Positions 1 to 26,170 of a DNA stretch of 64,000 nt are shown piece by piece; the stretch's first letter is position 1; every line of letters starts with the position of its first letter. Under the pieces are notes generated by a model, which was not told where the DNA came from, ran no database searches, and saw nothing but the letters and a program-made list of their open reading frames with translations. The translations under genes were made by a program, and so were the position numbers. This DNA is from Bacteroidetes bacterium RIFCSPLOWO2_12_FULL_37_12 (lineage in GTDB: Bacteria > Bacteroidota > Bacteroidia > 2-12-FULL-37-12): the NCBI GenBank assembly GCA_001769655.1, contig MEPC01000020.1, positions 217,922 through 281,921 on the forward strand. Reading direction: 5' to 3'.

Positions 1-259
1 ACTGTACATCCGCTTTTTACAATGCATTGGTGTATGCTTTTCAGGTAGGAAGCATGTTTGGGATTTTTAGGAATCGGATAACCGTTGTTGATGAGAAGGA
101 GGCGCATGGTTTAGGAATAAATCATAAATTGGGTAAGGAAAAAAATTTAGCCACTGATTACACTGATTAAAAATAGTTTTAAGATTTTTTGTGGCATTAA
201 TCCGTGCAATCTGTGGCTAAATTGAATTTTTTCATGTTGGACTGAACAGTTACCAATGT

Positions 260-1153
260 TTATAATATAAATTTAATTCCAAAATCCCTGGCAAGCAAAT
301 CAAGGTCGTTTTCAAAATATTTCCCGACAATTTTTCGTTCTCCCCCGGTCAGCGGCGGATATTTTTTTTCTACCGTATTCAATTTATAAATAAAAGGAAA
401 TAATCGTGTACGCAGAAAGAGTTTCAATTTAAACGGGATGATATTAGAAATTAATTTTGTAAACGGATTATCGGGGTTATTTATAATCCGGTTTATAAAA
501 GAAAATTTTGAAACGCCGGCGGTATTAAACCGAATGGTGGTGTCAATGCTTACTGAATCATCTACGGAGAGAAATTGGAAAATATTTTTCATTGCTTCTA
601 CGGGCATTTTCTCAAGCAAATCCTGATTTATAATAAGTATGTTTTTCCGTGGAAAGTATTTTAACCAATTTGATAAATGAAGATGATACAGCCCGTGATA
701 AAAGTAAGTTAATTCATGCCGTTCAGTAAAATTGCCGTTCATGCGGTTTTCTTCCAGTTTCATGGTGTCAAGAAAGCTAATCTCCGGGTTTTCCCAGGAA
801 TTTCGAATGGCATATTGATATGCAGAATAAGCACGGCTGACCGGCTCGCGGAGGACTACAATTAATTTTGTTTCCGGGTTATAGGAAAAAACCCGTTCCG
901 GGCATTTCTCATCGGTCAGCATGTGAACATAAGCGGCACCACGAATTTTTGCAGAGTCATTGTTTTCAAAAAAACCATTCAGATATTTCTCGCCCTGGTT
1001 ATAAAAGCGGTCCTGTGTGAAGTAATGCAATTCTTTTACTTTTGCCATTTCCACTCCGGGATGCTGTTCCAGATAGCGGTAAATGGATGTAGTGCCACTT
1101 TTTTGAGCGCCGATTATCCAGAAGGATACGGGGGGATGTTTAGGAGTGTTCAA
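260..1153 (-). CDS. PAPS-dependent sulfotransferase (carbohydrate sulfotransferase family). The longest ORF extends to 1258, but a TTG start at 1153 overlapping the upstream stop (TTGA) is more likely.
   Basis: It carries the 5'-PSB motif 'GAQKSGTT' and the 3'-PB motif 'REPVSRAYSAY'. The ATG at 1258 would overlap the Wzy-like gene by 109 nt in another frame. Confidence 0.8.
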   Translation of the reverse strand: MNTPKHPPVSFWIIGAQKSGTTSIYRYLEQHPGVEMAKVKELHYFTQDRFYNQGEKYLNGFFENNDSAKIRGAAYVHMLTDEKCPERVFSYNPETKLIVVLREPVSRAYSAYQYAIRNSWENPEISFLDTMKLEENRMNGNFTERHELTYFYHGLYHLHLSNWLKYFPRKNILIINQDLLEKMPVEAMKNIFQFLSVDDSVSIDTTIRFNTAGVSKFSFINRIINNPDNPFTKLISNIIPFKLKLFLRTRLFPFIYKLNTVEKKYPPLTGGERKIVGKYFENDLDLLARDFGIKFIL

Positions 1154-2445
1154 TTTTTTAAAGAAAAAATATAAAAATATACCACCACAATTACAGGAGC
1201 TACTGTAGGACTGATTAAGGCGTGTCCGGCTAAAAATGAATGGAGCATAAAAATACACATTGCAGTCAAAAATGTAAAATTCAGCAGGGTACGGTTTCTT
1301 AGAAAAATCCAGCCCATTTTTAAAAGCATGACAGTGGGGAATAAGAGAACGAGAAAACCGAGAACATATCCATATGACCCTACCAGATCGTAATAATCCT
1401 GTTCTACTAATTTACCAACTTCTTCGCTTTTGGTCCATTGGGTGAGATTATAATCATACTGTTTGGCAATACGGTTTGAAAAAGTCAAAAAACCTTCTCC
1501 TGTCAGGTTTAAGAGCCATGAGCGACCATTTATCCGCTTTTGTGCCAGTGAAATGGTTTTATGTCTGGGTGTTTCTTCGAGTAATTTTTCAAATTTAACA
1601 ATCAGAAAATTGTATTTTTGATAAACGCGGTACAGTTGATACGTACCGGCGATAAAGCAAATAAGAAAAGAAATAATAACAATTGATTTAGTGACATTAC
1701 TCAGGTTAACATCGTTTTTCTTAAAGAAAATAATAGAGAACAGGAATAAAAAGGTACAACCTAACGCGCCAAGAGTTGCCGCACGGCTGGTTAGCAACAG
1801 TAATCCGCAAAAAATTATAAAACATTTTAAGAAGTTAAACCACCCGAAATTTTTAAAAAAAGCATGCAGTCCAAAAATATACGAAAGAAGAACGGCGAGT
1901 CCGATGTCATTGATGGCAATGAAGTAGGATTTTATACCGAAAGAATATTCTGATTTCTTGTATGCCTCCATTCCCATTCCTGTGAGAAAGGAAAAAATTA
2001 GCGCCACCGATGCAACAAATCCAAAATAAACCACCAGCTCTATCAGAAAGTTGAGTTTAATTTCTTTGGTTTGATTAAGATAAATCAAAAATGAAAGTAA
2101 GGAGATGGGAAGCAATATTTTGATAAAAAACTGAGATTCATGAATTAATGAATAATTGTCGGATCCTACGAACCAGAAACCATTTACTATGAAAAAAGTA
2201 ACGGTGAGCGCTGAAGAATAAACAAGTAATGTTTTTTGCTGAATTAATCCGATAAAAATGAATGTTGCAAGAAATAAGAAAGTCCGGTAAAGAATGCCAA
2301 TGGAAAAAAAATGCAAGTTTTTGCTCAACAGCAATCCGTTTGCCAGGTCCACAAATACAGGTATAAAAAGAATAAGCCAGAGGGAAAAATCGCTCAGGGA
2401 AATTTTTTTTAATTTGTCAACTAGGGGTGAGGATGTGAAAATCAT
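1150..2445 (-). CDS. O-antigen ligase / Wzy-like polysaccharide polymerase (polytopic membrane protein)
   Basis: 431 aa with about 10 hydrophobic helices and a large loop. It has a 4-nt overlap with the upstream GH gene and sits in a polysaccharide operon. Confidence 0.6.
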   Translation of the reverse strand: MIFTSSPLVDKLKKISLSDFSLWLILFIPVFVDLANGLLLSKNLHFFSIGILYRTFLFLATFIFIGLIQQKTLLVYSSALTVTFFIVNGFWFVGSDNYSLIHESQFFIKILLPISLLSFLIYLNQTKEIKLNFLIELVVYFGFVASVALIFSFLTGMGMEAYKKSEYSFGIKSYFIAINDIGLAVLLSYIFGLHAFFKNFGWFNFLKCFIIFCGLLLLTSRAATLGALGCTFLFLFSIIFFKKNDVNLSNVTKSIVIISFLICFIAGTYQLYRVYQKYNFLIVKFEKLLEETPRHKTISLAQKRINGRSWLLNLTGEGFLTFSNRIAKQYDYNLTQWTKSEEVGKLVEQDYYDLVGSYGYVLGFLVLLFPTVMLLKMGWIFLRNRTLLNFTFLTAMCIFMLHSFLAGHALISPTVAPVIVVVYFYIFSLKN

Positions 2446-3671
2446 TTATTCCTGTATATAATCCATTCTTTACGATTCAGAAAACCGGGAATTGTTCCAG
2501 TTACTCCCGAATAGGATTCTGTAATTTTATTTTTTTGCGATTCGTTGATGGTACAATAATTTAAAGAAACCTTAATCGTTTCTTCCTGACCTATAATTTC
2601 GAGGGACTCCGGAGTTTCTTTCAGCATAAAACCATTTTTAATCACCTCATAAAACCGGATAAAATAATCATAACAGGGTTTGGGGTTATGAATTGAATCA
2701 AAAAATCCAAGCCCTCCCTGATTTTTCCTGTTTTCCTCCAAACGGTAAAGGTAAACTTTTTTAACATCATACGTGTAACAGAATTTCAGCAATAAAGCTA
2801 ATTCATAGATAAAATTATACGAATTGATGTATTTTAATTTTTCTGTACTTGACTTTAATACATACGAATAAACATTATATTCGGTAATGTAACTATGAAA
2901 GATACGGGGATCAGGATTAAGAATTTCCGTATAAATATTTTTTTCTTCGGGATAAATATGGAAGGAAAGTGAAATATTTTTCTCCGTAAGGTAAGATAAT
3001 TCATTTTGCACAGATGTTTCAGCGGATTTTCTGATTAAATTTTCTTTAAAAAAAGAGGAAGTATATCCGCAACATAAAACAGTGGAATCGTATTTTTCAA
3101 TATTGCGGTAGAGAATATTTCTGATTTTTTCAAATTCAATCTTATTTCCCCAGAAAAACAAAGGTGCGTCCGGTTCATTTCCGATTTCAAACTGAATAGG
3201 TGGTAACCAACCTTTTCGGACTATATTTTCAAAAAAAGTTTGCATGTACAGAGTATATTTTTCATAATCGGTGGGAGGAAAACGGTTAGAATAACTGTAT
3301 GCTTTTTTTTGTTTTTCATTTAATTGGGAAAGGTCAGCGTTTTCTTCATAAGGAAAATCAGAGATGGAAATTAACAGTTTGAAATCATGCTTAATAATTT
3401 TTTCAATGTAGCCATATAGTTTAGCGCTGTCATTGTATAATCCTTTGGTAAATGGTTCAAATACACGTAATGAATTTATATTTTGTTTTTTTAGCCGGTC
3501 CAATAAGGGTTCAATCTGAGTTATTTCGTTGAGATATCCGATGTTAAACCCGAATTCAACATTCTTAAATAAGTTAGTTGACGCCGGTTCAGAAATCTGG
3601 CAAAAGGAAGTATAAAAAGAAATAAGAAAGGAAAACGATAAAAATGTTTGCGAAAGAATGGGGGATTTCAT
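2442..3671 (-). CDS. Secreted clan GH-A glycoside hydrolase (GH5/GH39-like), probably an exopolysaccharide-processing hydrolase
   Basis: N-terminal signal peptide. 'FEIGNEPD' is the NEP acid/base motif of TIM-barrel clan GH-A. Start overlaps the acetyltransferase stop (ATGA). Confidence 0.6.
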   Translation of the reverse strand: MKSPILSQTFLSFSFLISFYTSFCQISEPASTNLFKNVEFGFNIGYLNEITQIEPLLDRLKKQNINSLRVFEPFTKGLYNDSAKLYGYIEKIIKHDFKLLISISDFPYEENADLSQLNEKQKKAYSYSNRFPPTDYEKYTLYMQTFFENIVRKGWLPPIQFEIGNEPDAPLFFWGNKIEFEKIRNILYRNIEKYDSTVLCCGYTSSFFKENLIRKSAETSVQNELSYLTEKNISLSFHIYPEEKNIYTEILNPDPRIFHSYITEYNVYSYVLKSSTEKLKYINSYNFIYELALLLKFCYTYDVKKVYLYRLEENRKNQGGLGFFDSIHNPKPCYDYFIRFYEVIKNGFMLKETPESLEIIGQEETIKVSLNYCTINESQKNKITESYSGVTGTIPGFLNRKEWIIYRNK

Positions 3672-4249
3672 GCGTCCAATCGCGTTTCAAAAAATTGTTT
3701 ATTATTTTTCATCTCATCTTTACTCCAATCCCACCATTTTAAAATTTGCATTTTCTGAATAGTTTCCTCAGAAAATCTTTTCCGGATAAATACAGCAGGA
3801 TTTCCTCCATAGATACCGAATGGCTCGGCGTCTTTAGTAATTACAGAGCCGGCGGCTAATACGGCTCCGTTTCCTATTTTTACTCCCGGCAAAATAATGA
3901 CGTGGTCGCCTATCCAGACATTATGACCAATGGATACGTCTTTTTTAGCGGAAATTTTTGCCATTCCCGTAATTTCTTTTTGTAATTTATATTGAAGGTT
4001 CGGATAATTCATGTCATGGTTTGAACTGATGATATCAATGAACCCGCCGAAAGCGCAATAGTTGCCGATTTCAACGTTACCGCTCCCTTTAATAAGAACA
4101 GGACCATTTATGCATGTGCCGGTACCGATAGTAAGATTCGCCGATAATACAGAGCCCTTCCTGATAAAAACTTTTTGATAGTTTAACGAAAAGAAATTCA
4201 AATAAAAATTTAGAAATTTTCTGTGAAGAGGGGTTTTAATTATCAGCAT
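3668..4249 (-). CDS. Sugar O-acetyltransferase, left-handed beta-helix (hexapeptide repeat; maltose/galactoside acetyltransferase-like)
   Basis: Hexapeptide repeats 'IGDHVIILPGVKIGNGAVLAAGSVITKD…GNPA' at the C-terminus. Confidence 0.8.
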   Translation of the reverse strand: MLIIKTPLHRKFLNFYLNFFSLNYQKVFIRKGSVLSANLTIGTGTCINGPVLIKGSGNVEIGNYCAFGGFIDIISSNHDMNYPNLQYKLQKEITGMAKISAKKDVSIGHNVWIGDHVIILPGVKIGNGAVLAAGSVITKDAEPFGIYGGNPAVFIRKRFSEETIQKMQILKWWDWSKDEMKNNKQFFETRLDA

Positions 4250-4316
4250 AATAACTAAGTAAGTATTAAGGATTTTTGGCTACTGTTCAGCCCAATAAAT
4301 GGCAACTACTCGGCAT

Positions 4317-4467
4317 AAAAAAAAGTTCTCACGCAAAGTCGCAAAGAACGCAAAGTAAAAAATCATTAATGATTTTTTTTCTTTGCGTTCTTAATTCTTT
4401 GCGTACTTTGCGCCTTTGCGTGATATAATATTCGCGAGAAATAACACCGGTCTGAGTAGTTTTTTTG
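4317..4467. repeat. About 150-bp structured intergenic repeat (MITE-like), copy 1. It contains the long imperfect hairpin TCACGCAAAGTCGCAAAGAACGCAAAG…CTTTGCGTTCTT…CTTTGCGTGA and terminal inverted ends AACTACTC…GAGTAGTT.
   Basis: A near-identical copy lies at 51654–51800 (about 85% identity over ~145 nt). Both copies are intergenic and in the same orientation. Confidence 0.8.
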
Positions 4468-4479
4468 TGGGATTTAGTG

Positions 4480-5817
4480 TCAGTTTTTAGTTTTTAAAAA
4501 AGGTATATAAGCCACAAAGATACCAAATTTCTTATAGACCACGATTAAACACAGGATATTTGCCATTATCAAAGCAATCATATTTGATAAAGCGGCCCCA
4601 TTCATTCCCCATAAAGGGATAAGCCAGAAACTCAAAACAATGCCGAGAAAGGATGTTGCCATGATAATGTATTGAAAGATTACCTGATTGTTAGTCATCA
4701 GAAGAATCAACCCGACAGAACCGGAAATGGCACTGATAAATTGTCCGATGGAAATTAATACAAATGCAAGTGAACCGGATGTAAATTCCTTTCCATAAAG
4801 ACCCAAAATAAAACCCGGAAACAAAACAAACAGCACTAAAACTGGAGCCGAAGTAATAAAAATCATTTTGGTGGATTGTTTTGCAACGGTAGCAAATCCT
4901 TTCATATCCTGAGTAGCGAACAATTCTGAGAATTTAGGAGCAGAAATGCTGTTAACGGAAGCGAGCACTACACTACTTAAAGCTCCCAAACGTAATGCTA
5001 CATTATAAATACCCACTTCTGCATCGTCTCTGTAAATTCCAAGAATAATGGTATCGGTCCAACTTTGAATGAAACTTAAGGCGGAGGGTACCAGCATGGG
5101 AAGTGCAAGGGTTATTAAAGCGGAAGATGAAATTACAGGGTCATTAGTAACTATCTTACAACGGGGAGTTTTGTTTTCCCAATAATACCATGCTACCAAA
5201 GCAGAAAGAAAAATTGCTGAAATAAATGAATAAAAAACCAGCAAACTATTCCGGGAAAAATACCATAGCGATAAAAATAGTAATGTTGCGAACACATAAA
5301 ACAAACCTTTCTGTATAAAAGAATATGCCATAATATCTTTGCGACCTCTCAGGGATTCTGAAATAATAAAAAGCAATACATAAGGCAGGAGGCAAAAAGA
5401 AAATAATTTTATGGTATCCGCCAGATAGGGTTTAGAGAATATTTTATCAGCAATCAGTGGAGCGGAGAAATATAACAGGAACGATAATATAATATTGAAA
5501 GGAACAAGTATGCGGATAGATTTATTGAACAATGGCTTAATCAAATCATTTTTATTTTGTGCAAGGTATTGTGGGATTAATTTTAACAGAGCCATATCCA
5601 TTCCCCCTTTTCCAAGTATACTGAAAAGTGACAGTACGGCAAACCCAATCGAAAAAACGCCCACCGTTCCGGCTCCGGTAAATCGTGCCACTAACCAGAA
5701 AAAAATAAAATTCATTCCCATGCTGAGGGCTTTGACTATAAATGCCACAGTGCTCCCTTTCAGCATCTCGGAGAAATGCCGGTCGTTGCGGAATCTGGAG
5801 TAATATTTCTGAAACAT
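4480..5817 (-). CDS. wzx: Wzx-type oligosaccharide flippase (polysaccharide biosynthesis protein, MOP superfamily)
   Basis: 445 aa, about 12 TM helices, typical Wzx size and composition, placed in a polysaccharide locus. Confidence 0.7.
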   Translation of the reverse strand: MFQKYYSRFRNDRHFSEMLKGSTVAFIVKALSMGMNFIFFWLVARFTGAGTVGVFSIGFAVLSLFSILGKGGMDMALLKLIPQYLAQNKNDLIKPLFNKSIRILVPFNIILSFLLYFSAPLIADKIFSKPYLADTIKLFSFCLLPYVLLFIISESLRGRKDIMAYSFIQKGLFYVFATLLFLSLWYFSRNSLLVFYSFISAIFLSALVAWYYWENKTPRCKIVTNDPVISSSALITLALPMLVPSALSFIQSWTDTIILGIYRDDAEVGIYNVALRLGALSSVVLASVNSISAPKFSELFATQDMKGFATVAKQSTKMIFITSAPVLVLFVLFPGFILGLYGKEFTSGSLAFVLISIGQFISAISGSVGLILLMTNNQVIFQYIIMATSFLGIVLSFWLIPLWGMNGAALSNMIALIMANILCLIVVYKKFGIFVAYIPFLKTKN

Positions 5818-5862
5818 GCGGGTAAAAGTAATATTTTATTTGCTTACATCAACTATTTTATA

Positions 5863-5870
5863 TATGTTTG
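5863..5870 (+). promoter_or_regulatory. Bacteroidetes -7 promoter box TATGTTTG inside the shared 14-mer ATATATGTTTGTAT. The same 14-mer lies upstream of cysD.
   Basis: Matches the TAnnTTTG consensus of Bacteroidetes sigma-A promoters. An identical 14-mer occurs at 7887–7900 upstream of cysD. Confidence 0.45.
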
Positions 5871-7655
5871 TATTTCATCAGCGGCATCATGGATAAAATT
5901 ATTGTTTCCCTTGTCATTCTTTTTGTTGTAGTATCGCTTTACAAGGAACTATTCCGTCCGGTAGCGACTTTTGTAATTGCTATTGTTGTTCTGCTTTTAT
6001 TCAGAATTCTTTCTCCCAAAGATGTGCTTGCAGGTTTTGCCAACGAGCAGATAGCTGTTATTTTCCTTTTACTTGTGCTGAGTGATGTCATTAAGAAAAC
6101 CGGAGCGCTGGATATTTCAATGAAAAAAATTTTCAAACCCGGTCTTTCTTATCCTTCTTTTATGACAAGAATGTTCGGATCTGTTTCGTTTACTTCTGCC
6201 TGGGTAAACAACACTCCGTTAGTCGCTATCATGATTCCCCATATTTATCAATGGGCAAGGAAATGTAAAATATCGCCTTCAAAAGTTTTGTTGCCTTTGT
6301 CCTACGCGGCTATTCTCGGCGGCACGGTGACATTAGTAGGAACCTCTACCAACCTGGTGGTAAATTCATTGACCGTTGAGGCGCATCTTCCACCCTTAAA
6401 AATGTTTGATTTCACACTCATTGGAATTCCGTTAGTTATCCTCGGAGGACTTTTTTTATTAGTAGCGGGTCATAAGCTATTGCCTGAACGGCATGATTTA
6501 TTATCGGGCTTTTCTGAAAAATCAAGAGAGTACATTACGGAAACGGTTGTGCCTGCCGGTTCGCCCTTAATAGGAAAAAATATTGAAGAAGCCAACCTTC
6601 GTAATCTGAGAGGATTATTTTTGGTAGAAATCATTCGCGATGGAAGACAGATTGTTCCTGTTTCTCCCCGTGAAATAATCCGTCAGAGCGATGAATTGAT
6701 TTTTGCCGGAGAGGTGAATACAATCATTGATTTGGTGAAAGACCCTTCCATTCTTTCACTACCTCAATTTTCAAATCTTCATCCACAGGAAAACATCACC
6801 ATTGTAGATGTGGTTATTTCAACGAATTCAGTTATGAATGGAATGAGTGTGAAAAACACAAATTTCCGTGGAAAATACGATGCGGCAATTGTTGCCATCA
6901 GCAGAAACGGAGAAAAATTATCCGGAAAGATTGGAGACACATTGTTGCAGGCGGGTGATTTGTTATTGCTGGTGGTTGGCAAAGATTTTTATCAGAGAAC
7001 GGAAGGGGTGCAGGATTTTTATATTATTTCGAACGTGCGGGAACTGAATCACATTAATTCTAAAAAAGTATGGTTGATTTTATTATTTACACTCGCCGTT
7101 TTTGTATTGTCTGGTATAGGAATTATTTCCTTGTTTTTCGGATTGTTGATACTGTTAAGCATTTTTGCTTTTTTTAAATTTGTAAAATTAAAAGAAGTAA
7201 AAGAAAATTTAGACCTTCAGCTTCTTTTGATGTTGGTTTTATCGTTGGCATTGGGGAAAGCCATTGAACTATCCGGTACTGCAAATGTGTTAGCAAACAT
7301 GATGATTTCCGTCACTCAATCACTACATAGTCCTGTCATAATATTATTGGGTTTGTTTCTGATAACTCTCATACTGACTAACGTAATAACCCATGCCGCC
7401 GCCGCCGCTGTAATTTTCCCGATAGCGGTTGCCGCGGCGGTTCAACTTGGATTGGATACAAAACCATTTATTCTTGCGGTGGCTTATGCGGCATCCTGCG
7501 GTTTTATGACCCCCTTTAGCTATCAAACCAATTTAATGGTTTACGGTCCAGGCGGATATAAATTTTCAGATTACCTGCATATCGGATTCTGGATGACACT
7601 TATTTCAGTGGTGGTGTGCGTGGGCGGGTTGGGATTGGTGTATGGGTTGTTTTGA
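5868..7655 (+). CDS. DASS/SLC13-family anion permease with two central TrkA-C domains; probably a sulfate transporter. An alternative start MDKII lies at 5889.
   Basis: 595 aa with N- and C-terminal transporter halves, cytoplasmic TrkA-C-like domains in the middle, and a conserved 'TNLMVYGPGGY' end. It sits directly upstream of cysD. Confidence 0.7.
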   Translation: MYFISGIMDKIIVSLVILFVVVSLYKELFRPVATFVIAIVVLLLFRILSPKDVLAGFANEQIAVIFLLLVLSDVIKKTGALDISMKKIFKPGLSYPSFMTRMFGSVSFTSAWVNNTPLVAIMIPHIYQWARKCKISPSKVLLPLSYAAILGGTVTLVGTSTNLVVNSLTVEAHLPPLKMFDFTLIGIPLVILGGLFLLVAGHKLLPERHDLLSGFSEKSREYITETVVPAGSPLIGKNIEEANLRNLRGLFLVEIIRDGRQIVPVSPREIIRQSDELIFAGEVNTIIDLVKDPSILSLPQFSNLHPQENITIVDVVISTNSVMNGMSVKNTNFRGKYDAAIVAISRNGEKLSGKIGDTLLQAGDLLLLVVGKDFYQRTEGVQDFYIISNVRELNHINSKKVWLILLFTLAVFVLSGIGIISLFFGLLILLSIFAFFKFVKLKEVKENLDLQLLLMLVLSLALGKAIELSGTANVLANMMISVTQSLHSPVIILLGLFLITLILTNVITHAAAAAVIFPIAVAAAVQLGLDTKPFILAVAYAASCGFMTPFSYQTNLMVYGPGGYKFSDYLHIGFWMTLISVVVCVGGLGLVYGLF

Positions 7656-7748
7656 GGGGTGACATGACCATCTTAGAAGTTCTGAATATTAAAAAAAATT
7701 GTTACTAATCAGCACATAGCAACTTTTGCTCTAAAAGAACAACACTAT

Positions 7749-7783
7749 ACATATAACACTAAACAAAAAATGTTTAAGTGTTA
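7749..7783. repeat. Palindromic element TAACACTAAACA-N6-TGTTTAAGTGTTA. Positions 7749–7771 form a 23-mer that is repeated exactly, in inverted orientation, at 13644–13666.
   Basis: The 23/23-nt match ACATATAACACTAAACAAAAAAT versus its reverse complement at 13644–13666 was read directly from the sequence. Confidence 0.8.
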
Positions 7784-7889
7784 ATAGATTATTTGGGCTT
7801 TTCATTTAACATTAAATATTTTTTGTTTTATGTTATTTGTTTCTTCTTGCGGCTAATGATATCTTCTGAGCAGTTACAAAAAATTCATA

Positions 7890-7897
7890 TATGTTTG
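7890..7897 (+). promoter_or_regulatory. -7 promoter box TATGTTTG upstream of cysD, about 33 nt before the ATG
   Basis: Matches the TAnnTTTG consensus and sits within the 14-mer shared with the permease upstream region. Confidence 0.45.
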
Positions 7898-7929
7898 TAT
7901 CTTAACTAAACCCACAAAACGCAATCATC

Positions 7930-8835
7930 ATGGTATCCTACAAATTAACCCATCTCCAGGAATTAGAATCCGAATCCATCTTTATAATCCGCGAAGTAGC
8001 CGCACAATTTGAAAGACCTTGTCTTTTATTTTCAGGGGGTAAGGACTCGATTGTTATGGCATATCTGGCTTATAAAGCATTTTATCCGGCTAAAATTCCG
8101 TTCCCATTGGTGCATATTGACACAGGGCACAATTTTCCGGAGACGCTTACATACAGAGATGAATTAGTAAAACGTCTGAACGCAACGTTGCTCGTGGGAT
8201 TAGTTCAGGAGAGCATTGACAAAGGAAGAGCGACAGAAGAAAAGGGCTACAATGCGAGCCGTAATGTATTGCAAACGGTTACTTTATTAGATACCCTTGA
8301 AGCGCATAAATTTGATGCCGCTATGGGAGGAGCGAGAAGGGATGAAGAAAAAGCAAGAGCGAAAGAGCGGTTTTTTTCGCACCGCGATGAATTCGGGCAA
8401 TGGGATCCCAAAAACCAACGTCCGGAACTCTGGAATTTATTCAACGGGAAAAAGAATATCGGAGAGCATTTCCGGGTTTTTCCGTTGAGCAACTGGACGG
8501 AAATGGATATCTGGCAGTACATTGCGTTGAATCAAATTCCGATTCCTTCACTCTATTTCACTCATGAAAGAGATTGTTTTACAAGAGACAACGTGATTTA
8601 TTCTGCATCCGATTGCATGCTCAGGCGACCGGAAGAAAAAATTGAACGCAAGCAGGTGCGATTCAGAACCATAGGGGACATGACTTGCACCGGCGCTGTG
8701 ATTTCAAAAGCCAATTCTCTGGAAGATATTATTCAGGAAGTGGCGGCATCGCGTACTACAGAGAGAGGCACCCGTGCGGATGATAAGCGTTCGGAGACCG
8801 CTATGGAGGATAGAAAAAAGCAGGGGTATTTTTAA
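7930..8835 (+). CDS. cysD: Sulfate adenylyltransferase subunit 2 (CysD; PAPS-reductase-like ATP-PPase fold)
   Basis: 'SGGKDS' PP-loop, 301 aa, strong family resemblance throughout. Confidence 0.9.
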   Translation: MVSYKLTHLQELESESIFIIREVAAQFERPCLLFSGGKDSIVMAYLAYKAFYPAKIPFPLVHIDTGHNFPETLTYRDELVKRLNATLLVGLVQESIDKGRATEEKGYNASRNVLQTVTLLDTLEAHKFDAAMGGARRDEEKARAKERFFSHRDEFGQWDPKNQRPELWNLFNGKKNIGEHFRVFPLSNWTEMDIWQYIALNQIPIPSLYFTHERDCFTRDNVIYSASDCMLRRPEEKIERKQVRFRTIGDMTCTGAVISKANSLEDIIQEVAASRTTERGTRADDKRSETAMEDRKKQGYF

Positions 8836-8918
8836 GAATGAACACTCGTAAACCTGTGTCTGAGGAGTATATATAGAAAATAGAATTGCTCCTACAAATA
8901 GTAATTAACACAAAAAAC

Positions 8919-9764
8919 ATGAATAAAATGGAACAGCAATCAGCCATAAAAATTTTCGAAGAAAAAAAAGTAAGAACTCTGTGGGATGCTGAACAGGAGA
9001 AATGGTATTTATCCATAGTAGATGTGATAGCCGTTTTAACTGAAAGTCCCAATCCAAGAAAGTATTGGAGCGTTCTGAAAACACGATTAAAAGCTGAGGG
9101 AAGCCAGTTGGCTACAAATTGTAGTCAACTGAAAATGCAGTCGGCGGATGGTAAATTTTATCTTACGGATGTAGCCGACACGGAACAACTTTTCAGATTG
9201 ATTCAATCCATTCCATCGCCCAAAGCAGAGCCATTTAAACTTTGGCTTGCACAAGTTGCCTCTGAAAGATTAGATGAAATGCAAGATCCGGAACTCACTA
9301 TTGACAGAGCAATGAAAGAATATTTGCAATTGGGATATTCTGAAAGCTGGATAAATCAGCGGCTGAAAAGCATTGAAATTCGAAAAGAACTGACCGATGA
9401 ATGGAAAAAAAGAGGATTGAAAGAAGGAGTTCAGTTTGCAACGCTTACCGACATTATTACTAAGGCATGGAGTGATAGAACCACAAAAGAATATAAAATT
9501 CTGAAAGGGTTGAAGAAAGAAAATCTTAGAGATAATATGACCAACACCGAATTGATTTTAAACATGCTTGCGGAAGCATCAACCAAAGAAATTTCCTCCG
9601 TGGTTGAACCCAAGGATTTTGACACCAGTATAAAAGTGGCAAAGCAGGGTGGTGATGTCGCTAAAGTAGCAAGGAAAGAATTGGAAGCGCGGACAGGGAA
9701 AAAAGTGGTTACTTCTTTAAATGCAAAAGCTGTTTTGAGTTTGAAAGAGAGACAAGAAAAATAA
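8919..9764 (+). CDS. Bro-N domain protein (DinD / phage-antirepressor-like). The ORF extends from 8886; the likely start is MNKMEQQ at 8919.
   Basis: Bro-N-like N-terminus 'IKIFEEKKVRTLWDAEQEKWYLSIVDVIAVL', DinD-like length, inserted between cysD and cysN. Confidence 0.55.
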   Translation: MNKMEQQSAIKIFEEKKVRTLWDAEQEKWYLSIVDVIAVLTESPNPRKYWSVLKTRLKAEGSQLATNCSQLKMQSADGKFYLTDVADTEQLFRLIQSIPSPKAEPFKLWLAQVASERLDEMQDPELTIDRAMKEYLQLGYSESWINQRLKSIEIRKELTDEWKKRGLKEGVQFATLTDIITKAWSDRTTKEYKILKGLKKENLRDNMTNTELILNMLAEASTKEISSVVEPKDFDTSIKVAKQGGDVAKVARKELEARTGKKVVTSLNAKAVLSLKERQEK

Positions 9765-9787
9765 ATGAATATCGTTTTTGTTGTACT

Positions 9788-10261
9788 ATGAAACCACCCC
9801 AAAACATGAAAAAAAAATCACACCCCTACATCCCATTCCTGCTGGAAGACATAAAAGCCGCCCACCGCAGTTCTGCCGTTGCAAAATTGAACGAGCCGAA
9901 AACCATTGAAGAAGAACTGGAAGAATCGGAGCGTTTTGTTTCTGACGAACGCGAACATACGCTCAGTTATTACTGCGGATTGAAACCGGAGGACTTTCCT
10001 CCTGTAGAACAACTGTCTGATAGAGATATGCAAAAGGTATGCGAAGCGTTTAATACAATGATGGATACGTGGAATTTGTCTGTTGATTTGCCGGAGAATC
10101 TGCCGCCTTCTTTAGCATATCAACTGACGATTGGATTATTAAGTAAAGAGACCTTCATTCCCAATTGTGGGACATTGCATATTGACTTTTGCACGGGCTA
10201 TGCACCGGACTGTGAATTGAAGCAATATTGCCCCTGTCTGAAAATCTGGAACGAAAAATAA
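9788..10261 (+). CDS. Hypothetical Cys-rich protein (157 aa; motif CGTLHIDFCTGYAPDCELKQYCPC)
   Basis: The ORF is open, sits in the same operon position after the Bro-N gene, and I recognise no family for it. Confidence 0.35.
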   Translation: MKPPQNMKKKSHPYIPFLLEDIKAAHRSSAVAKLNEPKTIEEELEESERFVSDEREHTLSYYCGLKPEDFPPVEQLSDRDMQKVCEAFNTMMDTWNLSVDLPENLPPSLAYQLTIGLLSKETFIPNCGTLHIDFCTGYAPDCELKQYCPCLKIWNEK

Positions 10262-10271
10262 CCCACTCAAT

Positions 10272-11957
10272 TTACTTTCTCCTCAAAATCTTTTTTAAAA
10301 CAATCTTCTCAACCCAACTATGAAAAGGATAAATCAAAATCGCAACGCCGGCATTGAAAATTAATTTCCAGACAGGCGCTCCTCCCGTCCATTGCTCTAC
10401 ATAAGGGTCAATCAGCACAATGATAAATTCAAACCATAATAAAATGGATATGAAAATAATGGCTTCAATCAATTTCCGTCCTACATGAATTCGTACCAGT
10501 AAAATGATGGCTGTAAACAATATGACAAAAGCGATGGCAATGCCCGAATACTGAAGAATATTTCGACGGGTTTTTTCTTCCATGGAAATTCTCAATGATT
10601 CTGCTTCCACGCTTTTTTTAATGATTTCTGCTTTTTCATATTCATATTGCGTCTCCAAACGGGCTTGCTTTTTTTCATTATCCTTATTGTAAATACTATC
10701 GCGATATAAAATATAATTCTGATAATTTTCGAATGCCTGTTTGTAATAGTTGCCTCCATTCAGATTATTCAGATTCTTTTCTCCTTTTATTTTAAAAATT
10801 TCAGCGAGGTGTTGAAAGTTATCTTTGCATAGATCCTTACTGCCGATTTCTTTAGCAATGGATAAACTCTTTAAACAAAACTCTTCCGCTTTTTCCAACT
10901 CTTTTTGATTCAAATAAACTAATCCAATATTCCCATACTTATAAGAGATACTTTCTTTGTGACCGATTTCTTCTGCAATCTTCAATCCCTTGTTCAGATA
11001 TTCAAGAGCCAAGGGGTATTTTACTGTCATTGCATAATGATTATTTCCTGCTTTTACAGCGGAGTCACCTTGAAAAACAAAAACTAATCCTATACTACCC
11101 AGCAAAGTTGTGGCGCTATATTGATTTCCCATTTCTTCCGAAATTTTCAATGCTTTCAAAAAATAATTTAATGCCATTGTTAATTTACCTTGCGAAACAT
11201 AGTTCTCTCCCATATTATTAAGGATGATAGCAATTCCATAATTATTTCCGGTTTTCTCAACAAGTTCTAATGATTTGGAATAATAATTAAGGGCAAGCGG
11301 CAAATTTTCCTGCATAGTATAAACATTTCCGATATTACTGTAAATGGATGCGATCAAATCATTATCTTTCAAGACAACGGAAATTTTTAACGCCTGAAAA
11401 TAATAATCCAGCGCTTTTGGATAATTTCCCTGTTTAACCAATACCGCTCCTATGTTGCCCTGAAATCTTGCCATCTTTTGTTTGTCTCCGATTTCCTTAG
11501 ATATTTTTAATGCTTTCTGGAAGTAATTCAGCCCTTTGGTCATGTTCCCTTGCTCTATATAAATAACTCCTATATTCCCGGTTGCCGCGGCTATACCACT
11601 GTTATCAAATAACTGTTCGTAAATTTTTAATGATTGAAATTGAAAAAAAAGCGCAGAATCATAGTTACCTTTTAATCTATAGAATATTCCAAGATTGCTG
11701 TAAATATTTCCCAGCCCTATTAGCCAACGGGCTTTTAGTGCCAAAGCAAGGGCTTGCTTTCCTAATAGGATAGAAGTGTCGGGATTTTTGAACCGAAATG
11801 AAGAGCCGATTGTATTCAGTATATCTGCTTTTTCAGTATCTATACGGGAAATTTTTAATCTGGAAAAAAGGGAATCAATAGTGTCAGCGTTTGAGAAAGT
11901 TGGTAGATTAGGAGAAAATAGTATGCAGAGTAGGAAAATAATCGAATAATTTCTCAT
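10272..11957 (-). CDS. Periplasmic TPR-repeat protein with a coiled coil and the conserved C-terminal 3-TM module (FEF…DPY…GGAPVWK…P-x-H), with no kinase or output domain
   Basis: Signal peptide, more than 8 TPR-like repeats. The C-terminal ~70 aa align with the C-termini of the ORFs at 38700, 16261, 26171 and 31052. Confidence 0.75.
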   Translation of the reverse strand: MRNYSIIFLLCILFSPNLPTFSNADTIDSLFSRLKISRIDTEKADILNTIGSSFRFKNPDTSILLGKQALALALKARWLIGLGNIYSNLGIFYRLKGNYDSALFFQFQSLKIYEQLFDNSGIAAATGNIGVIYIEQGNMTKGLNYFQKALKISKEIGDKQKMARFQGNIGAVLVKQGNYPKALDYYFQALKISVVLKDNDLIASIYSNIGNVYTMQENLPLALNYYSKSLELVEKTGNNYGIAIILNNMGENYVSQGKLTMALNYFLKALKISEEMGNQYSATTLLGSIGLVFVFQGDSAVKAGNNHYAMTVKYPLALEYLNKGLKIAEEIGHKESISYKYGNIGLVYLNQKELEKAEEFCLKSLSIAKEIGSKDLCKDNFQHLAEIFKIKGEKNLNNLNGGNYYKQAFENYQNYILYRDSIYNKDNEKKQARLETQYEYEKAEIIKKSVEAESLRISMEEKTRRNILQYSGIAIAFVILFTAIILLVRIHVGRKLIEAIIFISILLWFEFIIVLIDPYVEQWTGGAPVWKLIFNAGVAILIYPFHSWVEKIVLKKILRRK

Positions 11958-12188
11958 GTACGTTCGGTTTAATTCAGGGGGTTGGTTTTTATAGGATTTC
12001 AGAGCAAAGTTATTGAAAATATATTCAAAGATTTATGTTAAAAGCATTTCGCAATAGAAAAGAAAGTTCTCTTATAAACAGATACCTGAAACTTTACTAT
12101 TTTGACAGTATGTAAGAAGTGATATTTTATCTTTAAATTTGCACGAAACAAAACTATTCCCAAGATTTAACCAAACGCAAATAAGTCC

Positions 12189-13454
12189 TTGCACACCAAC
12201 AAATATCTCGACATGGACCTCCTCCGCTTCACCACTGCAGGAAGCGTAGATGATGGCAAAAGCACGTTAATTGGGCGGTTGCTTTTTGATAGCAAATCCA
12301 TTTTTGAAGACCAACTTGAAGCCGTTGAATCCTCCAGCAAACGAAAAGGATTAGATCACATAGATTTATCCCTGCTGACAGATGGATTAAAGGCAGAACG
12401 CGAACAGGGAATCACCATTGATGTGGCTTACCGGTATTTTGCAACACCCAAACGTAAATTTATTATCGCCGATACTCCTGGGCATATTCAATATACCCGT
12501 AACATGGTGACAGGAGCATCAACCGCTAATCTGGCTATAATTTTAATTGATGCACGGAAAGGTGTTCTTGAACAGACCTGCCGTCATTCGTATATCGCTT
12601 CCCTGTTAAAAATCCCTCATCTGGTGGTCTGCATAAACAAAATGGATCTGGTGGACTACAAAGAAGAAGTATTTGAAAAAATTGTGCACGATTTTGATAA
12701 TTTTTCTTCCAAACTGGAAGTGGTTGATATTAATTATATTCCTATCAGTGCGTTGAAAGGGGACAATGTGGTTGACAAAAGTAAAAACATGGATTGGTAT
12801 CATGGTCAAACCTTGTTGTATTTACTGGAACATATCCATATCGGAAGCGACTATAATCATATTGATTGCCGGTTTCCGGTGCAGTATGTGATACGCCCTC
12901 ATTCAGATGAACATCATGATTACCGGGGGTATGCTGGAAGAATTGCCGGCGGAGTGTTTAGAGTAGCAGACAAAGTAAAAGTTTTACCCGGTGGCTTTAC
13001 TTCAACCATCAAAACCATTGATTTTTTCAACCAGTCATTAAAAGAAGCATACCCTCCCATGTCAGTGACACTAACCCTTTCCGATGACATTGATATCAGC
13101 AGAGGAGACATTATTGTAAGGGAAAATAACGTACCGCAGTTGGGGCAGGACATTGACATGATGATGTGCTGGTTTAATCCCAAGAAAATGAATCCCGCCG
13201 GCAAATATTTTTTGAGACATAACACCAAAGAAGGAAAGTGCATGGTAAAAGAAGTGCGTTATAAAGTGGATATCAATACCATGCAACGCAACGAAACGGA
13301 TAAAGACGTTTGCATGAATGACATTGCCAGGGTGTTAATCAGAACCACTTTCCCCTTGTGTTTTGACAGTTACCGGAAAAACCGTATCACTGGCAGTGTC
13401 ATACTTATGGATGAAGGAACCAATGAGACGGTGGCGGCTGGGATGATTGTTTGA
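12189..13454 (+). CDS. cysN: Sulfate adenylyltransferase subunit 1 (CysN GTPase)
   Basis: G1 box 'GSVDDGKSTLIGRLL', 'DTPGH', 'NKMD', 421 aa. Confidence 0.9.
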   Translation: MHTNKYLDMDLLRFTTAGSVDDGKSTLIGRLLFDSKSIFEDQLEAVESSSKRKGLDHIDLSLLTDGLKAEREQGITIDVAYRYFATPKRKFIIADTPGHIQYTRNMVTGASTANLAIILIDARKGVLEQTCRHSYIASLLKIPHLVVCINKMDLVDYKEEVFEKIVHDFDNFSSKLEVVDINYIPISALKGDNVVDKSKNMDWYHGQTLLYLLEHIHIGSDYNHIDCRFPVQYVIRPHSDEHHDYRGYAGRIAGGVFRVADKVKVLPGGFTSTIKTIDFFNQSLKEAYPPMSVTLTLSDDIDISRGDIIVRENNVPQLGQDIDMMMCWFNPKKMNPAGKYFLRHNTKEGKCMVKEVRYKVDINTMQRNETDKDVCMNDIARVLIRTTFPLCFDSYRKNRITGSVILMDEGTNETVAAGMIV

Positions 13455-16260: not shown

Positions 16261-19044
16261 TTGAAAATGTCTTTCAGAATAAACCATACACTGCATATAT
16301 TTTTATTCTTTTTTATATTTATTCTTGTTCTTGTTCTCTCCCCCGCTTACGCCCAAAACTACCGGATAGAAAAATACTCAGTGGAAGCAGGCATGGCACA
16401 GGCATCGGTGGTTGACATAGAACAGGACAAAGATGGAAATATTTGGTTTGCCACTTCGGGCGGCGCTACTTATTATAATGGTAAGACATTTGAAACCGTC
16501 ACTACCGGTCATGGCTTGTTAAATAACAGGGTGCGGGAAATTTTTTGCGACAAAAAAGGAAATATCTGGATAGGTACCGGTGAGGGAATTTCAGTCATCC
16601 ATTACAATTCATTTCTTCATAGTGACACATTATCGGTTAAGAATTATACCAAGGCACAAGGGTTACCCGATAACCGGATTTCCAGCATAATACAAGACAC
16701 AAAAAACCGGATATGGATTACTACAACTGGAGGTGTGGCACGGTATCTATATAACGTGTTGGACACTTCCTGCACAAAATGTTTCAGTACGTTTACCGTA
16801 GAAAGCGGATTATTTACCAATCAAATCAATTCAATCTACGAGGATTTAAAAGGACAATTATGGCTCTGTTCACAAAAAGGATTAGCCATGTTCAATCCGG
16901 ATGATCTTTCCGGGAAAATTCTTAATCCCTTGATTTTAAATACAAGTAATGGATTGAAAGAAAACACGGTGAGAACAATAGCGCAGGGTAAAGACGGGAT
17001 TTATTGGATAGGTCTGTTGGGTTCATTAATGAGAATGAAATTAACGGATGATGATAAAAAATATTTCACATTGGAAGATGGTGTAAATTATTTTCCTGTT
17101 TTATTCGGAAATCAGATTCAACGCGCTACGGTTGACCCTAATGGAGATGTCTGGATTGGGGCACACGGTGCGCTAAGAATCTCCGAAGAGGGCAGTGATT
17201 TTATCAGCATGGATAATGGATTGGGAAAGGGTTCCGTAAGAGCAGTTTTTCATGACAGAGAAGGCAATACCTGGTTCGGAACATCTGCAGAAGGATCCAG
17301 CAAATTCAGAAGTAAAATGTTTTCGGTTTATAGCACGGATCATGGACTTATCTGCAATGATTTAAGAGCTATACTGGAAGACCACCGGGGATGGGTATGG
17401 ATGGCTGGTGCCACCGGACTGTCACTGTTAAATCCAGCGGAAAAAAATTATCAGAAACCATACAAAAAGCTTTTCCGGAATTATTCTACCCGCGAAGGAA
17501 TAAATTATACGGGCTCACTCTGGTCGTTGGCAGAAGATAAAGAAGGCAATATCTGGATAGGTGCCGGCGGTGGAATTTCTGTGGTAAATGCAAAAGAATT
17601 TGAAAAAGGAAAAGTGGTATTTGACAATTTTTTGGAAGCAGATGGCTTAAAGAATCCCGCCACCATGGCTTTATATCAGGATAAGAAAGGTAGAATCTGG
17701 GCGGGAACTTTAGGAGGGATTGCGTTATTTCAGGGAAAACTCTTTGAATCGAAAACAGTTCGGACGTCTCAACATAAAAAACATCCCTCATTCAATTTTT
17801 ATGGTCCTGAAAAAGGCATTCCTTTTTCACAGATACTTGATATTAAGGAAGACGCACGCGGAAATTTATGGATTGGTTCCGGCGGTGGATTACTCCGGCT
17901 CAAAGAGTTGACGGATGACACCATTGAAGTGGAAATTATTGGAACGCAACAAGGGTTAAAGAATATTCACATTTTATCAATTACGGAAGATAAAGTTGGA
18001 AATCTTTGGCTGGGAACTGCCGGAGGAGTTACTAAATTAAAAGTGATTCGCAACGAACCACTCGAAGTGAGTGTCACTAACTATACTGTAAAGGACGGAC
18101 TGAGTTCAGATACTCCGTACTTGCTGTTGATTGACAGCAAAGGGGATTTGTGGGTGGGAACCAACCGCGGAGTTGACCGTTTTTACATACGACAGGGAGA
18201 ATTTAAAAAAATCAAATCTTACGACAAAGACCAAGGATTTTCGGGTATTGAATGTAATCACAATGCCGGCTGGATGGACCGGAACGGGAACCTGTGGTTT
18301 GGGACGATGGGGGGCGCCATTTATTATAATGGAAGGGAAGATAAACCGAACCTGACGGAGCCGCTTGTAAAAATTTCAGAGTTAAAATTATTTTATGATA
18401 AAATAAATCCAGTTAATTTTGAAAAAAAAGAAACTGCTTATAGTGATTCCTCCTCTTCCCTTTTATTCAATTACAATCAAAATCACCTGACATTTGAATA
18501 TATCGGCGTAAGTTTAAGCCATCCGGATAAGGTAACCTATCAATATATGTTAAGAGGATTTGATAATGGCTGGAGTCCGGTGACACGCGAAAACGATGCT
18601 ACTTATTCAAATATACCACCCGGCAACTATGTTTTTATGGTAAAGGCGTGCAACGAGGAAGGAATCTGGAACCGTAAACCGGTTGAAATATCGTTTACCA
18701 TAAAAAAGCAATATTGGGAAACGGGATGGTTTTACACATTACAGGTTTTATTTTTTGCCGTTCTTATCGGAACTACATTTTATTTAAACCGCTCCAACAC
18801 CCAAACGCGTATTGCCACGACGCTGATTTTTGTCACGTTGTTTGTCAGTTTTGAATATGTAGAGGAAACGGTGGAGCCCTATCTGATGAATTTCACCGGC
18901 GGCGCTCCGCTTTTTAAAGTCATAACCAATTTGATTCTCGCATCCATTCTTGTTCCGGTGGAGCATCGTATCCGTAAATTTCTTGCGGGATTAAGTAAGG
19001 GGAAAGAGGAGGGGGAGATTGAGAATACGGTAGTTAGTGACTAA
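16261..19044 (+). CDS. Periplasmic Reg_prop (two-component regulator propeller) + Y_Y_Y domain protein. It ends in the conserved 3-TM module instead of histidine-kinase, receiver or AraC domains.
   Basis: Signal peptide. Many 'DxxGNIWIGT' propeller repeats. Y_Y_Y region 'TYQYMLRGFDNGWSP…ATYSNIPPGNYVFMVKA'. C-terminus 'WETGWFY…FEYVEETVEPYLMNFTGGAPLFKV…VPVEH'. Confidence 0.8.
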   Translation: MKMSFRINHTLHIFLFFFIFILVLVLSPAYAQNYRIEKYSVEAGMAQASVVDIEQDKDGNIWFATSGGATYYNGKTFETVTTGHGLLNNRVREIFCDKKGNIWIGTGEGISVIHYNSFLHSDTLSVKNYTKAQGLPDNRISSIIQDTKNRIWITTTGGVARYLYNVLDTSCTKCFSTFTVESGLFTNQINSIYEDLKGQLWLCSQKGLAMFNPDDLSGKILNPLILNTSNGLKENTVRTIAQGKDGIYWIGLLGSLMRMKLTDDDKKYFTLEDGVNYFPVLFGNQIQRATVDPNGDVWIGAHGALRISEEGSDFISMDNGLGKGSVRAVFHDREGNTWFGTSAEGSSKFRSKMFSVYSTDHGLICNDLRAILEDHRGWVWMAGATGLSLLNPAEKNYQKPYKKLFRNYSTREGINYTGSLWSLAEDKEGNIWIGAGGGISVVNAKEFEKGKVVFDNFLEADGLKNPATMALYQDKKGRIWAGTLGGIALFQGKLFESKTVRTSQHKKHPSFNFYGPEKGIPFSQILDIKEDARGNLWIGSGGGLLRLKELTDDTIEVEIIGTQQGLKNIHILSITEDKVGNLWLGTAGGVTKLKVIRNEPLEVSVTNYTVKDGLSSDTPYLLLIDSKGDLWVGTNRGVDRFYIRQGEFKKIKSYDKDQGFSGIECNHNAGWMDRNGNLWFGTMGGAIYYNGREDKPNLTEPLVKISELKLFYDKINPVNFEKKETAYSDSSSSLLFNYNQNHLTFEYIGVSLSHPDKVTYQYMLRGFDNGWSPVTRENDATYSNIPPGNYVFMVKACNEEGIWNRKPVEISFTIKKQYWETGWFYTLQVLFFAVLIGTTFYLNRSNTQTRIATTLIFVTLFVSFEYVEETVEPYLMNFTGGAPLFKVITNLILASILVPVEHRIRKFLAGLSKGKEEGEIENTVVSD

Positions 19045-21851: not shown

Positions 21852-21885
21852 TTGGTTTTAAACCATTTCAAAATATCGGATTGGA

Positions 21886-22659: not shown

Positions 22660-22673
22660 AACGATTCGTGAGG

Positions 22674-25371: not shown

Positions 25372-25372
25372 A

Positions 25373-26140: not shown

Positions 26141-26170
26141 TAAAACTAAGTTCAATTAAAAAAAGTTTTT

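Follow-up and report, generated by a model that had tools for sequence, protein, structure and literature searches.

A sulfotransferase-bearing polysaccharide locus beside genes for sulfate uptake and activation in an uncultured Bacteroidetes bacterium

Where a sulfotransferase gene lies in a surface-polysaccharide locus and genes for sulfate uptake and activation stand next to it, the question is whether the activated sulfate is destined for the polysaccharide or for ordinary assimilation. Such an arrangement is found in a 64,000-nt stretch of DNA from Bacteroidetes bacterium RIFCSPLOWO2_12_FULL_37_12 (hereafter the window, to which coordinates refer; G+C ∼36%), in which one polysaccharide locus, locus A, is adjoined by genes for a putative sulfate importer and for the ATP sulfurylase subunits CysD and CysN, and a second, locus B, contains cysC. 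We consider that locus A probably belongs to a surface-polysaccharide pathway of the Wzx/Wzy type with an O-acetylated, sulfated repeat unit, and comparison with related loci supports its reading as a predicted sulfated-polysaccharide locus with a linked supply of activated sulfate. Flanking sequence was read from contigs of the same species (GCA_001769355.1 MEOZ01000067.1 and longer ANAN16-1 metagenome contigs); window and flanks together comprise ∼84 kb, to which the absence of cysH, cysI and cysQ given below applies.

The sulfotransferase and its partners in locus A

Locus A reads on the minus strand in the order Wzx flippase, acetyltransferase, glycoside hydrolase (GH), Wzy/WaaL-like protein, sulfotransferase and GT4 glycosyltransferase. 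The identities assigned in a preliminary description of this stretch hold for the sulfotransferase, the acetyltransferase and Wzx by Pfam match, and for a GH clan-A hydrolase by motifs and fold.

The sulfotransferase (260–1153, minus strand; 297 residues, the form used by the gene callers) matches PF00685 with 63 bits against a cutoff of 22. Its best solved relative is 3RNL (E = 7e-27), and it also matches the heparan sulfate (HS) 3-O-sulfotransferases (E = 1e-16 to 3e-21, the latter for 3-OST-1, 1ZRH) and NDST1 (∼1e-13 to 4e-14). The 5'-phosphosulfate-binding loop GxxKxGTT is present as G15-A-Q-K18-S-G20-T-T and the 3'-phosphate-binding motif RxPxxRxxS as R102-E-P104-V-S-R107-A-Y-S110, with G15, A16, G20, R102, P104, R107 and S110 invariant across 41 homologues. 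In the same homologues E41 (in K-E-L-H-Y-F) is at least 90% conserved; it aligns within N-E-V-H-F-F of 3-OST-1 to the residue that we take to be Glu90, the catalytic base of that enzyme. At the level of sequence the protein clearly belongs to the HS 3-OST/NDST-like family of sulfotransferases dependent on 3'-phosphoadenosine 5'-phosphosulfate (PAPS). Read by eye, the sequence shows no evident signal peptide or transmembrane segment, and the enzyme is therefore taken to be cytoplasmic. It is the sole representative of its family, no further sulfotransferase ORF being found in the window, in locus B or in the flanks.

Steroids and other metabolites are among the substrates open to Bacteroidota sulfotransferases whose genes adjoin those for PAPS (PMC9417993, PMC13449962), and an enzyme whose acceptor is a lipid or small metabolite, like BT_0416 with cholesterol, could have come to lie in a glycan locus by chance. 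We consider this highly improbable here: the gene overlaps that of the Wzy-like protein by 4 nt, among solved relatives with a known function the carbohydrate sulfotransferases HS 3-OST and NDST come closest, and homologues at 34–45% identity lie inside Wzx/Wzy loci of other genomes (L090, L091 and L099 in our comparison).

The overlap is one of three, each of 4 nt, that chain the acetyltransferase to the hydrolase (ATGA), the hydrolase to the Wzy/WaaL-like gene (ATGA) and the latter to the sulfotransferase, whose TTG start overlaps the preceding stop (TTGA). Translational coupling, which had been proposed for the whole set, is therefore plausible for these four genes but not for Wzx, which is separated from the acetyltransferase by 230 nt carrying a strong hairpin.

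The Wzy/WaaL-like gene (1150–2445, minus strand) encodes a polytopic membrane protein of 431 residues that has no Pfam match of its own. An exhaustive search found 284 relatives, and among the 61 that were aligned PF13425 (O-antigen_lig) is matched by 44 and Wzy_C by seven. The AF2 model (pLDDT 92) has WaaL as its best solved fold (7TPG, E = 1e-4, TM 0.51–0.54), with SEDS proteins next, so that by its relatives' domains and its predicted fold the protein is a member of the Wzy/WaaL superfamily. It is unlikely, in our view, that the product is instead a sulfated O-antigen or lipooligosaccharide, or a protein-linked glycan, with this protein acting as ligase or O-oligosaccharyltransferase. The best fold is indeed that of a ligase and not of a polymerase, and the O-antigen_lig and Wzy_C families of the relatives include ligases, but WaaL was the only Wzy/WaaL-type protein among the matched structures and its match therefore does not discriminate. 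Locus A also has a single glycosyltransferase and lacks Wzc; against this, a 1372-residue Poly_export/SLBB outer-membrane export protein (OPX) is encoded after GT4 in the same direction, just outside the window, and related loci carry Wza and/or Wzc (L090, L091) or a Wzz (L099). The protein is probably the repeat-unit polymerase, with a ligase as the alternative; the earlier name of Wzy-like polymerase stands as regards the superfamily, in which the two activities are not separable on this evidence.

The hydrolase (2442–3671, minus strand; 409 residues) has an N-terminal signal or lipoprotein-like peptide and is predicted to be secreted. It has no match in Pfam, NCBIfam or the sequences of the PDB, and its family is small: of the candidates scored, 20 proved to be relatives, and six of these match GH39 (PF01229). 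Across 20 sequences the residues of E162-x-G-N165-E166 and E264 never vary, while conservation of P167 is at least 90%, giving an N-E-P motif in which, from what is known of the clan, E166 would be the acid/base and E264 the nucleophile. The AF2 model (pLDDT 84) has an alternating strand-helix pattern, a (β/α)8 fold and a C-terminal β domain, and Foldseek places it closest to GH30 (5CXP, 3e-12) and GH39 enzymes (4M29, 7e-12), with E-values ranging from 3e-12 to 1e-11 and TM scores of 0.53–0.59. Fold and invariant motif together make the assignment to clan GH-A right, and we describe the protein as GH39/GH30-like.

The remaining two proteins are a left-handed β-helix (hexapeptide) acetyltransferase (3668–4249, minus strand; 193 residues, or 177 from an alternative start; PF00132, 54 bits), which resembles Vat, CatB, WbbJ and WcaF and falls under all equivalog cutoffs, and a Wzx-type flippase (4480–5817, minus strand; 445 residues; PF01943, 76 bits; MatE), which has homologues at 30–31% identity in L090, L091 and L099.

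Uptake and activation of sulfate

Divergent from Wzx across a 71-bp intergenic region is the gene for a DASS/SLC13-type anion permease of 588 residues (5889–7655, plus strand). Its matches to CitMHS (181 bits) and Na_sulph_symp (41 bits) are above cutoff, it has two internal TrkA_C (RCK_C) stretches, and against TIGR00785 (DASS) it scores 104, under the cutoff of 198.6; its role as a sulfate importer is putative and is suggested by context, homologues standing beside cysC, cysDN or cysQ in nine loci. After a spacer of 274 nt, in which no riboswitch or other known RNA was found with Rfam, follows a full-length cysD for the small subunit of ATP sulfurylase (7930–8835, plus strand; 301 residues; NF003587, 454 bits against a cutoff of 195; TIGR02039, 426 bits, above cutoff). 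The GTPase subunit is encoded by cysN, likewise full-length (12189–13454, plus strand; 421 residues from a TTG, 413 from the ATG at 12213), which scores 560 against a cutoff of 336 with TIGR02034 and 594 against 590 with NF003478 and has no fused kinase domain for adenosine 5'-phosphosulfate (APS). The description of locus A as directly followed by permease and cysDN is accurate for the permease and then cysD, but not for cysN, which lies 3.35 kb from cysD. The only PAPS-forming step that the window encodes is APS kinase, the product of cysC (53134–53727, minus strand; 197 residues; PF01583, 233 bits; 56% identity to E. coli CysC).

An identical 14-mer before the permease and cysD, also reported previously, is exact: ATATATGTTTGTAT stands at 5860–5873 and at 7887–7900 (both plus strand), and the similarity of the two copies stops at its ends. 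The first contains TATGTTTG, a fit to TAnnTTTG that begins 26 nt before the permease ATG, and in the second TAnnTTTG begins 40 nt upstream of the cysD ATG; we take TAnnTTTG to be the −7 promoter consensus of Bacteroidetes. When one mismatch is tolerated, three sites are found where 0.04 are expected. As a candidate conserved regulatory site the 14-mer was rejected, being confined to the species and missing at both cysN and cysC; cysN has a different TAnnTTTG of its own 79 nt upstream of the ATG at 12213, and there is none within 150 nt upstream of cysC. Since the 14-mer overlaps the generic box, a promoter that is shared or has been duplicated accounts for it better than a conserved operator would, and its best reading is as a single promoter core present twice, compatible with co-expression and not proof of a dedicated regulator. 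The permease and cysD are probably co-expressed. A general scan for sigma-70 promoters and terminators gave 49 promoter-like sites in comparison with 46 expected.

The sulfate genes were compared with 80 Bacteroidota cysD loci. Fifty-two of these have the order cysC-cysD-cysN and 11 the order cysD-cysN-cysH, and cysQ lies within 10 kb in 21. Homologues of the permease (40–50% identity) occur in eight, every one of them cysC-linked, and are missing from the 11 cysD-cysN-cysH loci; L095 adds another, in the order DASS-cysC-(385 aa)-cysQ. Sulfotransferase or Wzx homologues are present within 10 kb in six of the 80, again all cysC-linked, as in L044, where DASS-cysC-cysD-cysN-cysQ-Wzx is followed by four sulfotransferase matches. 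In neighbour-joining trees the window's CysN falls in a 61-leaf clade that holds all 47 cysC-linked sequences of the tree and no cysH-linked one, whereas CysD does not discriminate, being marginally nearest to a cysH-linked CysD (Paludibacter).

The reported lack of cysH and cysIJ, the genes of assimilatory reduction, stands for the ∼84 kb, with the rest of the genome outside the result. In the window, tblastn with E. coli CysH, CysQ and a CysI fragment returned nothing but the expected cross-match of CysH on CysD, the same queries detecting Bacteroidota CysH, CysQ and CysI in other loci; Pfam scans of the window's larger ORFs revealed no further sulfur genes, and neither cysH nor cysI is annotated in the flanks.

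If these genes work together with locus A, the permease would bring in sulfate, CysD and CysN would make APS, and CysC, encoded in locus B, would convert it to PAPS; the cysDN pair would serve mainly sulfation. The single sulfotransferase would place sulfate on a sugar of the undecaprenyl-diphosphate-linked repeat unit, presumably before flipping, as the enzyme and its PAPS are found on the cytoplasmic side. Wzx would then flip the sulfated unit, the Wzy/WaaL-like protein would polymerise or ligate it at the outer face of the inner membrane, the secreted hydrolase may trim or release chains in the manner of PslG in the Psl system, and the Poly_export protein just beyond the window would export the polymer.

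The rival to a linked supply is that the permease, cysD and cysN are ordinary assimilation genes standing beside locus A by chance, with the sulfotransferase, if active, using the general PAPS pool, an explanation that we consider less probable. The closeness of CysD to the cysD-cysN-cysH loci agrees with it; the grouping of CysN with the cysC-linked type and the confinement of permease homologues to cysC/cysQ-type clusters do not. Likewise, cysC is not adjacent but 40 kb from the sulfate genes of locus A, yet it too lies within a polysaccharide locus, and if cysQ is absent from the ∼84 kb, so are cysH and cysI. The 3.35 kb between cysD and cysN, with three unrelated genes, one of them on the opposite strand, is unlike a streamlined dedicated operon, and sulfotransferase or Wzx genes are near just six of the 80 cysD loci; L090, by contrast, has cysQ-cysC-cysD-cysN inside a polysaccharide locus homologous to locus A. 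Linkage to cysC is itself no proof of sulfation, since cysC-cysD-cysN clusters in Flavobacteriaceae (Zunongwangia) have been read as assimilatory, feeding a PAPS reductase (PMC2864250).

Besides those among these points that favour assimilation, others weigh against our reading of locus A as a sulfated-polysaccharide locus with its own supply. The shared 14-mer, found in same-species contigs only, largely coincides with the generic promoter box and is absent before cysN. In locus A and the 10 kb beyond it there is no initiating phosphoglycosyl transferase (Bac_transf/WecA-type) or Wzc and one glycosyltransferase, the GT4, and locus A has no Wzz; lacking an initiating transferase and Wzc, and with its single glycosyltransferase, it cannot build a polymer alone and needs genes elsewhere, with locus B possibly as partner. 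The steps set out above also draw on family knowledge, for an uncultured organism known here from its genes. The preliminary description had taken the genes to point to PAPS made for sulfation rather than assimilation; the comparative context supports the first half of this, and exclusivity is not established, given the ∼84 kb covered, the nearness of CysD to cysH-linked CysD, the split cysD/cysN, the lack of cysQ and the assimilatory reading of the Zunongwangia clusters.

The block between cysD and cysN (8919–11957, mixed strands) consists of a full-length phage-type Bro-N protein (8919–9764, plus strand; Pfam Bro-N; phrog_15286, E = 1e-124), a 157-residue orphan ORF (9788–10261, plus strand) and a TPR protein with C-terminal membrane segments (10272–11957, minus strand; Pfam TPR). 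We rejected it as a bounded mobile element, there being no flanking direct or inverted repeats besides those internal to the TPR gene. The first two have no homologue in the 80 related cysD loci and the TPR protein has one weak one (L029, 6 kb from cysD). In those loci cysN mostly follows cysD by ∼0.1–0.9 kb, with a few larger gaps; judged by spacing only, several related genomes have insertions of 0.5–3.3 kb at this junction. The TPR protein has a paralogue at 38700–40388 (plus strand), with 34% identity over the full length (E = 1e-95), the two sharing an architecture of signal peptide, TPR repeats and a membrane domain at the C terminus.

A recurring gene set and known sulfation systems

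The closest relative of the sulfotransferase (45% identity) is in L090, where the hydrolase (33%), Wzy (29%) and CysN (74%) also have counterparts, in the order Wza-Wzc-cysQ-cysC-cysD-cysN-Wzx-SULT-GH-Wzy-SULT-SULT-GT-SULT-GT (SULT, sulfotransferase; GT, glycosyltransferase). Here ATP sulfurylase, APS kinase and 3'-phosphoadenosine 5'-phosphate (PAP) phosphatase are encoded together with sulfotransferases, which is not so in the window. L099 reads cysQ...Wzz-Wzx-AcT-SULT-SULT-arylsulfotransferase-GH39-Wzy-SULT...SULT (AcT, acetyltransferase), L098 reads GH-Wzy-SULT-GT-heparinase II/III-AsnB-SULT and L091 reads Wzx-SULT-Wzy-C5-epimerase-GT4-AsnB-SULT. The occurrence of the same genes in related loci of uncultured bacteria makes the window's set a recurring module, in one relative of which the whole PAPS pathway is embedded. 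Members of the hydrolase family mostly accompany sulfotransferases. L097, which has a hydrolase homologue, has no sulfotransferase nearby; L092 has a sulfotransferase homologue (38%) with no Wzx/Wzy context, adjoining a polysaccharide deacetylase and an RND efflux system.

More tentatively, the combination of Wzx, acetyltransferase, HS 3-OST-like sulfotransferase, rare GH39/GH30-like hydrolase and Wzy-like protein may be a conserved, uncharacterised module by which a separate class of loci for sulfated heteropolysaccharides could be recognised among uncultured bacteria, with a hydrolase family specialised for sulfated chains and, in the present case, a PAPS pathway common to two loci. The genes present suggest that some loci of this class are glycosaminoglycan-like.

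A glucuronyl C5-epimerase-like protein (PF06662) is encoded at 7130–8134 of L091 and a heparinase II/III-like protein at 13758–15674 of L098; such genes, in loci related to locus A and rich in sulfotransferases, hint at glycosaminoglycan-like chemistry in uncultured bacteria.

Duplicated cysDN and cysC homologues dedicated to the supply of glycan sulfation are a feature of the rhizobial NodPQ/NodH and LpsS/KpsS systems, which differ from the window in being alphaproteobacterial, in their sulfotransferase families and in their acceptors (Nod factor, lipopolysaccharide or K-antigen). A secreted clan-A hydrolase of GH39 type inside an exopolysaccharide biosynthesis operon is known as PslG in the Psl locus of Pseudomonas aeruginosa; unlike PslG, the hydrolase described here has no significant sequence match to any solved structure and belongs to a small, mostly sulfotransferase-associated family.

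Two clusters are published for capsular polysaccharides whose sulfation has been structurally proven, that of Vibrio sp. KMM 8419, with second copies of cysC, cysN and cysD and sulfotransferases (PMC11641403), and that of Cobetia marina KMM 1449, with cysN/C, cysD, cysQ, a sulfate permease and a sulfotransferase (PMC11766843). The window shares with both a polysaccharide locus with a sulfotransferase, cysD, cysN and cysC, and Cobetia also has the permease, as well as cysQ. Those clusters are gammaproteobacterial and use ABC-transporter (Kps) export, their PAPS genes stand together and their products are chemically proven; the present system is of Wzx/Wzy type, belongs to an uncultured Bacteroidetes known from genes alone, and has cysC 40 kb off and cysD and cysN split. 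With clusters of PAPS genes, permease and sulfotransferase published for these capsules, the rarity that had been ascribed to sulfated bacterial polysaccharides is relative.

Wzx/Wzy-dependent machinery together with PAPS-dependent sulfotransferases is shared with the xss unit for synechan of Synechocystis PCC 6803, which has the regulators XssQRS, and with related cyanobacterial units for sulfated exopolysaccharides; as far as the xss components are described in the part of the source consulted, they differ from the window in having no PAPS-synthesis genes, permease or GH39-like hydrolase (PMC13125312). Aphanothece sacrum, named there as the sacran producer (PMC13125312), has a distant homologue of the window's sulfotransferase, at 32% identity over 63% of the query. 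In B. thetaiotaomicron, of the same phylum as the window, PAPS for the sulfotransferase BT_0416 comes from BT_0411–0415, among them the proposed importer BT_0412 (PMC9417993). There too a proposed sulfate importer, cysC, cysD and cysN stand beside a sulfotransferase gene; the genes are contiguous and stand outside any Wzx/Wzy context, and cholesterol or another steroid serves as acceptor (PMC9417993).

The joining of PAPS genes and sulfotransferases in a polysaccharide cluster is therefore an established principle, as Vibrio, Cobetia and the cyanobacteria attest, and the gain from the present locus is incremental. Its peculiarities are the Wzx/Wzy type in a member of the Bacteroidetes, a PAPS pathway spread over two polysaccharide loci, the split cysD/cysN and the rare GH39-like partner. 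Environmental biofilms and granular sludges have been found to contain sulfated material that resembles glycosaminoglycans and has no known producers (PMC10483923, PMC7356697), so that candidates at the level of loci are useful. If the product is sulfated, the locus would name a specific uncultured aquifer (groundwater) Bacteroidetes as a producer of a sulfated extracellular polymer, and it would offer candidate parts for engineered sulfated polysaccharides, namely a bacterial carbohydrate sulfotransferase, the Wzx and Wzy that go with it, a hydrolase and a permease for sulfate.

Locus ends, locus B and other features of the window

Locus A extends past the start of the window. The gene for the 355-residue GT4 glycosyltransferase (PF13439/PF00534, from the same-species contigs) leaves the window there, with its 5' end at 1–107 (minus strand) and its ATG at 107–105, and is followed on those contigs by the genes for the 1372-residue Poly_export/SLBB protein, DUF3604 proteins and a methyltransferase. 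At 12246–20894 of L006 the 1372-residue protein, which has a faint DUF3604 match of its own, precedes two more DUF3604 proteins, one with a Por_Secre_tail of the type IX secretion system (T9SS), and the methyltransferase; in a sister contig the 1372-residue gene is called as two ORFs of 390 and 1026 residues.

Two structured elements lie between genes of locus A. The 152-nt gap between sulfotransferase and GT4 contains an imperfect hairpin (150–217, minus strand; minimum free energy −22.8 kcal/mol, z = −4.3; arms GCCACAGATTGCACGGATTAA ... TTAATCAGTGTAATCAGTGGC) resembling a repetitive extragenic palindromic (REP) sequence, which may be a REP or an attenuator. The hairpin directly after Wzx is a long palindrome with a T-run (4325–4430, minus strand; −41.7 kcal/mol, z = −8.8), terminator- or REP-like, and is the first copy of a ∼160-bp element with CGCAAAG/CTTTGCG repeats and a T-run at its end; the second, at ∼51640–51790 (minus strand), is ∼83% identical over aligned gaps and stands in locus B directly after cysC and the transporter gene paired with it. 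The element was seen in same-species contigs only.

Locus B, the second and larger Wzx-type polysaccharide locus (43034–64000, continuing in L093, 1–10000), encodes a Bac_transf protein (46872–48263), a 901-residue Poly_export protein, several GT4 glycosyltransferases, UDP-Glc dehydrogenase, UDP-GlcNAc 2-epimerase, WbpB/D-like proteins, an asparagine-synthase-like amidotransferase and a DUF354 protein. Its Wzz-like match is weak (23.6 bits, just under the cutoff of 25.5), and beyond the window it has NeuB, a CMP-transferase, a formyltransferase and another Wzx. It contains cysC and no recognisable sulfotransferase. Six nt after cysC lies the gene for an Atg22-like MFS transporter (51805–53127, minus strand; PF11700, 241 bits), and the pair sits between WbpB/D-like genes and a CCG-domain gene; the transporter has no homologue in any fetched locus outside the species, so that its pairing with cysC is not recurrent there.

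Between the two loci, at 16261–35729, are three large Reg_prop/Y_Y_Y β-propeller proteins of 927, 892 and 908 residues, in which no kinase or receiver domain was detected, each adjoining a PKD-domain protein that carries a T9SS signal (Por_Secre_tail or CHU_C) at its C terminus. At 19402–19470 (plus strand), directly upstream of the gene for a 789-residue Reg_prop/PKD protein with a T9SS sorting tail, is a DUF805 RNA motif (Rfam RF03081, 69.9 bits against a gathering score of 51.1).

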